From the NCBI RefSeq assembly GCF_013167455.1, contig NZ_CP038328.1: a DNA stretch of 64,000 nt. One strand, written 5' to 3'. The notes beneath the pieces are model-generated. The model was not told where the DNA came from and ran no database searches. It saw only the letters and a program-made list of their open reading frames with translations. Positions within the stretch are counted from its first letter, which is position 1. Every line of letters begins with the position of its first letter. The translations under genes and the position numbers were made by a program. The stretch is from Escherichia coli O157:H7. Lineage in GTDB: Bacteria > Pseudomonadota > Gammaproteobacteria > Enterobacterales > Enterobacteriaceae. Shown here one piece after another: positions 49,385 to 49,543 of this stretch.

Positions 49385-49417
49385 AGGGCGCGCATATTAA
49401 CTTTGTAACGTCATAGA

Positions 49418-49543
49418 GTCAAAGAAAAAGGCAGCCTGTGGTTGCCTTTTGCCAATAATTCGCACACATTGCGGGTTACTGCTTTATTTTCGTTCAGTGC
49501 TGATAACGAACATCAACCTGCAAAACGAAGCGCATAGTTTAAA
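49418..49543 (-). ncRNA. sraB: Possible small RNA in yceF-yceD intergenic region (SraB locus in K-12); bounds approximate
   Basis: Hairpin AGGCA-N9-TGCCT followed by T-rich tract on minus strand at about 49420-49448; assignment by genomic context and memory only. Confidence 0.25.

Follow-up and report, generated by a model that had tools for sequence, protein, structure and literature searches.

Introduction

The gap between the divergent genes yceF and yceD of Escherichia coli raises the question of which RNA is made from its minus strand, where that RNA begins and ends, and how it relates to the gene that follows it. The sequence analysed here (the window) is a stretch of 64,000 nucleotides from E. 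coli O157:H7, in which a first-pass annotation, made from the letters of the sequence, had proposed a probable locus for the small RNA SraB, as in K-12. The overall best explanation, held with high confidence, is that the locus is sraB, that its product is most likely a 109-nt RNA starting at 49529 and that this RNA is best read as the terminated leader of transcripts from the promoter yceDp1. The identity, structure, conservation and promoter motifs are results of the present analysis, and the start sites, the binding of ProQ and the repression by ppGpp are taken from published papers. The sraB locus itself is already known; the refinements of its promoter and structure combine published coordinates with conservation data and are not discoveries about the window, which holds a textbook E. 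coli sRNA locus and departs from K-12 here by one loop base only. The comparison set consisted of 80 loci encoding close relatives of YceD (88-100% identity), drawn from the Enterobacteriaceae plus Winslowiella.

Identity and boundaries of the locus

It is virtually certain that the minus-strand locus between yceF and yceD is the known E. coli small RNA gene sraB. An Rfam scan of the whole window returned a 169-nt match to RF00077 (SraB) at 49421-49589 (-), with 209.8 bits (E 6.8e-44) against a gathering score of 130 bits, and this match covers model positions 1-169 without truncation. The window is the same as K-12 sraB (b4418, 1146589-1146757) at 168 of 169 nt. The alignment with the annotated K-12 gene, which the first-pass annotation had named as a way to check its proposal, gave 220 identical bases out of 221 over a wider stretch of K-12 MG1655 and placed K-12 sraB in the same gap; the only difference is a C at 49508 (T in K-12), in the loop of stem 2. 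The gene order, read from the open reading frames, the K-12 annotation and a RefSeq O157 record, is also that of K-12, with yceF divergent and yceD on the sraB strand, 36 nt downstream. In the curated K-12 MG1655 record, sraB overlaps the start of yceF by 7 nt and stops 36 nt before yceD. The proposal of a probable SraB locus is thus confirmed by a full-length family match, by near-complete identity to the K-12 gene and by the same synteny. Across the species, the sraB region was found in 5424 of 5426 complete E. coli genomes, and a query with the 62-nt insert showed the window's version to be the commoner one, present with at least 99% identity in 3691 of the 5424.

Four Rfam families scored above their gathering scores in the 64-kb window, SraB among them. 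The scan also detected the 5' UTR element of RNase E (Rfam rne5) at 51439-51775 (+), full length and with 260 bits, the sok antitoxin RNA of a hok/sok-type locus at 4097-4271 (-) (114 bits, above the gathering score) and the sRNA STnc100 at 307-473 (-) (102 bits, likewise above it).

The boundaries call for revision. The first-pass annotation had described a 159-bp intergenic region at 49385-49543 and had given its coordinates for sraB as approximate; the locus and the hairpin with a T-rich tail were correctly recognised, and the limits of the interval were not. That interval follows from taking the longest yceF ORF, with its ATG at 49544. RefSeq places the start of yceF at the ATG at 49583 (585 nt, 194 aa), so that the gap really spans 198 bp (49385-49582). 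All 80 related loci keep the RefSeq start codon (CAT at 49585-49583), and only 10 of 77 have the upstream ATG at 49544 in frame. The annotated 169-nt sRNA takes in the yceF start codon and exceeds the earlier interval by 46 nt, and the 109-nt form (49421-49529) falls entirely within that interval. On the far side of yceF, just past its stop codon and before rluC, the segment 50170-50250 holds palindromes (GCCGGATGCGG...CGCATCCGGC) that we take to be REP-like. The features of the locus are collected in Table 1.

Table 1. Features of the sraB locus and its flanking genes, in coordinates of the window.
Feature	Position	Strand	Basis
sraB, form of the K-12 annotation and Rfam (169 nt)	49421..49589	-	RF00077, 209.8 bits; 168/169 identity to b4418
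SraB, 109-nt form with RNA-seq-supported 5' end (alias yceDp1 start)	49421..49529	-	TSS of PMC7967276; PMC7075262; three-hairpin fold
5' stem-loop (Rfam stem 2) in ~56-nt lineage-specific insertion (~49532-49477)	49489..49529	-	affected columns 94% gaps in 80 loci
Hairpin 3	49453..49481	-	folds; inner part within 49473-49460 nearly invariant
Intrinsic terminator, A-tract/U-tract hairpin (49450-49426) with U-rich tail	49421..49450	-	folds; 94.8% of cells paired; 4 pairs change on both sides
-10 hexamer TAAACT for start 49529	49536..49541	-	ends 6 nt before 49529; within conserved block
-10 hexamer TAAAAT of divergent yceF promoter	49540..49545	+	ends 7 nt before yceF TSS; same conserved block
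-10-like TAAAAT upstream of annotated 5' end 49589, inside yceF codons	49595..49600	-	sequence reading; not conserved
Promoter-like TTGACT-17-TAATAT directly after terminator	49394..49422	-	promoter scan; probably yceDp2
GC-rich discriminator-like GCGCGCCCT between -10 and yceD ATG	49385..49393	-	sequence reading; 100% conserved in 80 loci
yceD CDS, 173 aa	48863..49384	-	ORF list, RefSeq annotation; ATG at 49384
yceF CDS, 194 aa	49583..50167	+	RefSeq annotation; start conserved

RNA structure and the conserved core

Folded from nucleotide 1, the 109-nt RNA forms three hairpins with a free energy of -33.1 kcal/mol (z = -2.86), and only 1 of 200 shuffled sequences folded as well. These hairpins differ in their distribution. 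The middle stem-loop of the annotated form (~49532-49477) is absent from most genera, where the yceF-yceD gap measures ~141 bp as against 198 bp, and its carriers among the 80 loci are limited to the E. coli locus, E. albertii, Salmonella, one Citrobacter and Intestinirhabdus. Although the sequence of stem 2 diverges fast, its pairing has been kept through double changes in four genera, with Salmonella, Citrobacter and Intestinirhabdus among them. The possibility that the insertion is a repeated mobile element was rejected, since blastn against the 5424 E. coli genomes found its stem-loop as a single copy in every matching genome.

Variation around these elements takes two further forms. A divergent sraB allele occurs in E. 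coli strain E5 (L083:251-311) and in ~92 E. coli genomes, and is 60-80% identical in the apex of stem 2; there, UUGAUG...UAUCAG is replaced by CUGGCAA..UUGCCAG and the hairpin is still formed. A different insertion, of 90-125 nt and located between hairpin 3 and the terminator, is found in Cedecea neteri (L061:1310-1440) and in two unclassified Enterobacteriaceae (L053:1280-1440 and L057). These insertions carry a second CTTAAACT block, and the one in L053 contains a sequence that is presumably ERIC/IRU-like.

Most Enterobacteriaceae carry only a ~54-nt core of SraB, which is among the most conserved non-coding sequence of the region. In 52 distinct sequences, 87.8% of the cells of this 3' core are paired, as against 28-56% when the partners are slid by 1-3 columns, and six pairs change on both sides. 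Within it, positions 49473-49460 (the inner stem-loop of hairpin 3 plus one base) show a mean identity of 96.8% in the alignment with 77 other loci, compared with a background of 78% at the third codon positions of yceD. Judged by these patterns of pairing and substitution, the shared ~54-nt core behaves like a functional RNA. Two small ORFs picked out by eye within SraB (13 aa and 9 aa) were discarded as candidates, being not conserved in Salmonella, and the first of them starts upstream of the transcription start at 49529.

The same region holds a discontinuity in one relative. In Escherichia sp. MOD1-EC7003 (L004:1350-1500), identity to E. coli is 93-100% on the side of yceD-rpmF-plsX. On the yceF side and in the short intergenic region it drops to 63-76%, and the closer match there is Pseudocitrobacter (L024), with 77-92%. 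The change occurs within the invariant sraB core and the yceD promoter, and could be a recombination junction or the mark of a chimeric assembly.

ProQ binding, regulation and targets

SraB, a strong ligand that has served as a model for ProQ binding, is enriched in ProQ co-immunoprecipitates and binds ProQ in vitro in a 1:1 complex, with contacts to the NTD, the linker and the CTD, and this association has been documented for the K-12 and Salmonella RNAs by co-IP, EMSA, HDX and SAXS (PMC5393179). What the NTD needs is a terminator hairpin with 2 bp or more and, after it, 4 or more U; an A-rich 5' flank is typical of ProQ ligands and disfavours Hfq (PMC7367173). The RNA of the window agrees with this description: GCCUUUUUCUUU follows directly on the terminator stem as the NTD demands, and an A-rich flank, GGCAAAAGGC, lies at 49453-49444, with its four A's 89-100% conserved in the 80 loci. 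Once released, SraB would be bound by ProQ through the terminator, with the A-rich stretch on its 5' side and the 4 or more U at its end. As regards its regulation, SraB is among the most strongly ppGpp-repressed sRNAs in Salmonella (PMC3963941), and replication inhibition is listed as a condition that induces it.

The status of SraB as a ProQ ligand (PMC5393179) also fits a different role, namely that of a ProQ-dependent sRNA which base-pairs in trans, with the loop of the invariant hairpin 3 and the linker CGCAAUGUGUGCGAAUUAUUGG as its seed, and for which the proximity of yceD would be incidental. Such a role is possible, and we give it somewhat less than an even chance. The excess of conservation at 49473-49460 across genera over the third codon positions of yceD points in this direction, as does the invariance of hairpin 3 in E. 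coli, which persists though the 56-nt insertion has moved it away from the yceF promoter; furthermore, loss of resistance to egg albumen is reported for an sraB mutant of Salmonella Enteritidis, whose sensitivity is increased (Jiang 2010, as cited in PMC7967276 and PMC3963941). Against these points stands the record on targets: the literature searched reports none, and a review table gives them as 'ND'. The 56-nt core was also tested for duplexes with either strand of the 64-kb window, a search that covers ~1% of a genome, is far too small to find a real target and says little on the matter; it singled out only the antisense strand of SraB itself, the best non-self duplex (-50.2 kcal/mol) being no better than those of shuffled queries (-41 to -49.5 kcal/mol). 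Base-pairing in trans is in any case compatible with the origin of SraB as a terminated leader, and the two do not exclude each other.

The 5' end and the back-to-back promoters

In all K-12 RNA-seq data sets re-examined in a published survey, SraB starts ~60 nt downstream of its annotated 5' end, and the supplement of that survey gives the start as K-12 1146649 (PMC7967276), which converts to window position 49529 and to an RNA of 109 nt. The same source reports a length of 99 nt for the Salmonella homologue and notes that a ~105-nt product was also mentioned in the original description of sraB (PMC7967276). An independent catalogue lists the same site as 'yceDp1-1146648/49/50' (PMC7075262). 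One coordinate thus bears two names in two papers, the SraB start 1146649 (PMC7967276) and yceDp1 1146648-50 (PMC7075262), and SraB is therefore best read as a terminated yceDp1 leader. The start sites used for this strain derive from K-12 or Salmonella papers, and on this footing the main 5' end of SraB is probably 49529.

The -10 hexamer for this start belongs to a block, CATTTTAAACT (49546-49536), that is 92-100% conserved in the 80 loci, and its -35 element is poor (TAGCGT, 2/6 matches). Repression of SraB by ppGpp is in keeping with the GC-rich sequence that separates the -10 from the start at 49529. The same block serves the divergent gene, for which the published start is K-12 1146625 (PMC7967276), that is, window position 49553; the sraB/yceDp1 and yceF promoters accordingly stand back to back, and their -10 hexamers share 2 bp.

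The 169-nt species of the K-12 annotation and the Rfam model would start instead at 49589, from the -10 TAAAAT at 49600-49595, and would repress yceF in cis as an antisense RNA. The hexamer is a good one and is placed 6 nt upstream of 49589, and the first 37 nt of this RNA (49553-49589) complement the 5' UTR and start codon of yceF without a mismatch; as the main species, it is nevertheless unlikely. Every RNA-seq set of PMC7967276 puts the start 60 nt further downstream, and the Salmonella homologue measures 99 nt. The hexamer lies within yceF codons and is not conserved, with column identities of 9, 99, 8, 71, 99 and 48% at 49595-49600 in the 80 loci; in the two long forms from outside Escherichia that were aligned, Salmonella has AAGGAT at this place and Citrobacter AAGAAT. 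For the first 60 nt of the annotated form, RNAalifold predicted no pairs on either strand in 50 distinct sequences, and Rfam stem 1 receives no support from RNAalifold outside the Escherichia/Salmonella lineage. Furthermore, genera with the short intergenic region would need a 113-nt version of this RNA, and nothing supports one. The RNA is probably 60 nt shorter at its 5' end than the curated 169-nt boundaries make it, and its apparent overlap with yceF would stem from them.

The terminator and the region upstream of yceD

The minus-strand hairpin with a T-rich tail, which the first-pass annotation had located about 40 bp upstream of yceD, was recovered in place, with the U-tail ending at 49421, 36 nt before the ATG at 49384. 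Its stem, AAAAGGCAACCACAGGCUGCCUUUU (49450-49426, -), folds into a hairpin of 8+2 bp that is followed by UCUUU to 49421, and the hairpin plus UUUUUCUUU constitutes a rho-independent terminator at the 3' end of SraB. Across 52 distinct sequences 94.8% of its cells are paired, and the apex is 65% conserved as compared with 93-99.5% for the lower stem and the tail. By itself the hairpin is unremarkable (z = -1.4 against shuffles), and a consensus terminator scan missed this minus-strand terminator because its stem holds an internal A/C mismatch. The reality of the hairpin rests on the Rfam match, on compensatory changes (78 sequences) and on the 168/169 identity to K-12. A plus-strand site that the consensus scan did propose, at 49456-49478, was rejected as merely the complement of hairpin 3.

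Downstream of the terminator, the 38-nt block 49422-49385 averages 98% identity, and the discriminator together with the ATG (49393-49382) is 100% conserved in the 80 loci. The T-tract of the SraB terminator runs straight into the -35 TTGACT, and a reading of 49385-49393 revealed no Shine-Dalgarno sequence between the TAATAT -10 and the yceD ATG. In the literature, yceD is described as being without a 5' leader (PMC4378010), and two yceD promoters are cited (bioRxiv 10.64898/2026.03.13.711678). The TTGACT-17-TAATAT site is probably yceDp2, and the arrangement of its motifs suggests that the yceD mRNA made from it may be leaderless and stringently controlled.

A further reading, on which there is no functional RNA and SraB is a transcriptional by-product, is very improbable. 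It would reduce the conserved elements to DNA signals, namely the promoters of yceF and yceD, an UP-like T-tract and a terminator set between the two as an insulator. In its favour are the abutment of the T-tract on the -35 of the yceD promoter, the place of the yceF -35 that hairpin 3 DNA would occupy in short-form genera and the lack of an established E. coli phenotype or target. Against it, compensatory changes maintain the pairing of both the terminator and stem 2, which DNA signals would not need, SraB is abundant and specifically bound by ProQ (PMC7967276, PMC5393179), and hairpin 3 is invariant in the long-form lineage, where a role as yceF -35 is impossible.

SraB as the probable terminated leader of yceDp1

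According to the preferred reading, RNA polymerase would start at 49529 on the minus strand, driven by the conserved -10 TAAACT, and would stop at the intrinsic terminator (hairpin 49450-49426, U-tail to 49421), with the release of a 109-nt RNA of three hairpins; we infer that SraB is this terminated leader of yceDp1 transcripts. Polymerases that pass the terminator would continue into yceD-rpmF and give a leadered mRNA, and the second promoter, TTGACT-17-TAATAT after the terminator, would make an essentially leaderless yceD mRNA. Whether read-through into yceD is functionally relevant is, in our estimate, evenly balanced. The listing of its start site as yceDp1 as well suggests a simple role for SraB in cis.

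In a bolder version, which we consider a long shot, termination at the end of SraB would be regulated, not constitutive, and would attenuate the yceD-rpmF (L32) operon. The near-invariant 13-nt hairpin CGCAAUGUGUGCG would then be the sensor for a ribosome-related factor (YceD, L32 or ProQ) that sets how much yceDp1 transcription reaches yceD-rpmF, and the released SraB would be the read-out. If true, this would tie a 25-year-old orphan sRNA to the coordination of ribosome and membrane synthesis.

Consequences for annotation

The Rfam SraB model is built on the long form of Escherichia and Salmonella, and every short-form genus scanned falls below its threshold: in an E-value scan of 19 loci, the short-form genera that were detected scored 35-106 bits against RF00077, below the required 130. 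Among the records inspected, sraB is annotated only in the curated K-12 record; in the two E. coli records from outside K-12 (L002 and L083), the automatic RefSeq annotation (PGAP) marks no sraB and leaves the gap empty.

Comparison with known systems

The closest known system is SraB of K-12 itself (Rfam RF00077; sraB, b4418; synonyms pke20 and psrA4), which shares strand, flanking genes and terminator with the gene of the window and differs from it by the single loop base at 49508. With other RNAs of the ProQ class (SibB, the cspE 3' UTR and the malM 3' UTR), SraB shares a terminator, at least four 3' U and an A-rich side that pairs with the U-tract; it is larger than these, consists of several hairpins and also contacts the ProQ linker and CTD. 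The Sib RNAs have an antisense toxin partner, and none is known for SraB.

A class of sRNAs is released by premature termination within a 5' leader, and its members derive from attenuators or riboswitches. Unlike these leader-derived sRNAs, SraB is without an evident ligand, leader peptide or alternative antiterminator structure, and the gene downstream of it has a promoter of its own past the terminator. SraB resembles them in that its start would be shared with a promoter catalogued for the downstream operon (yceDp1) and that it ends at a terminator, 36 nt before the first gene.
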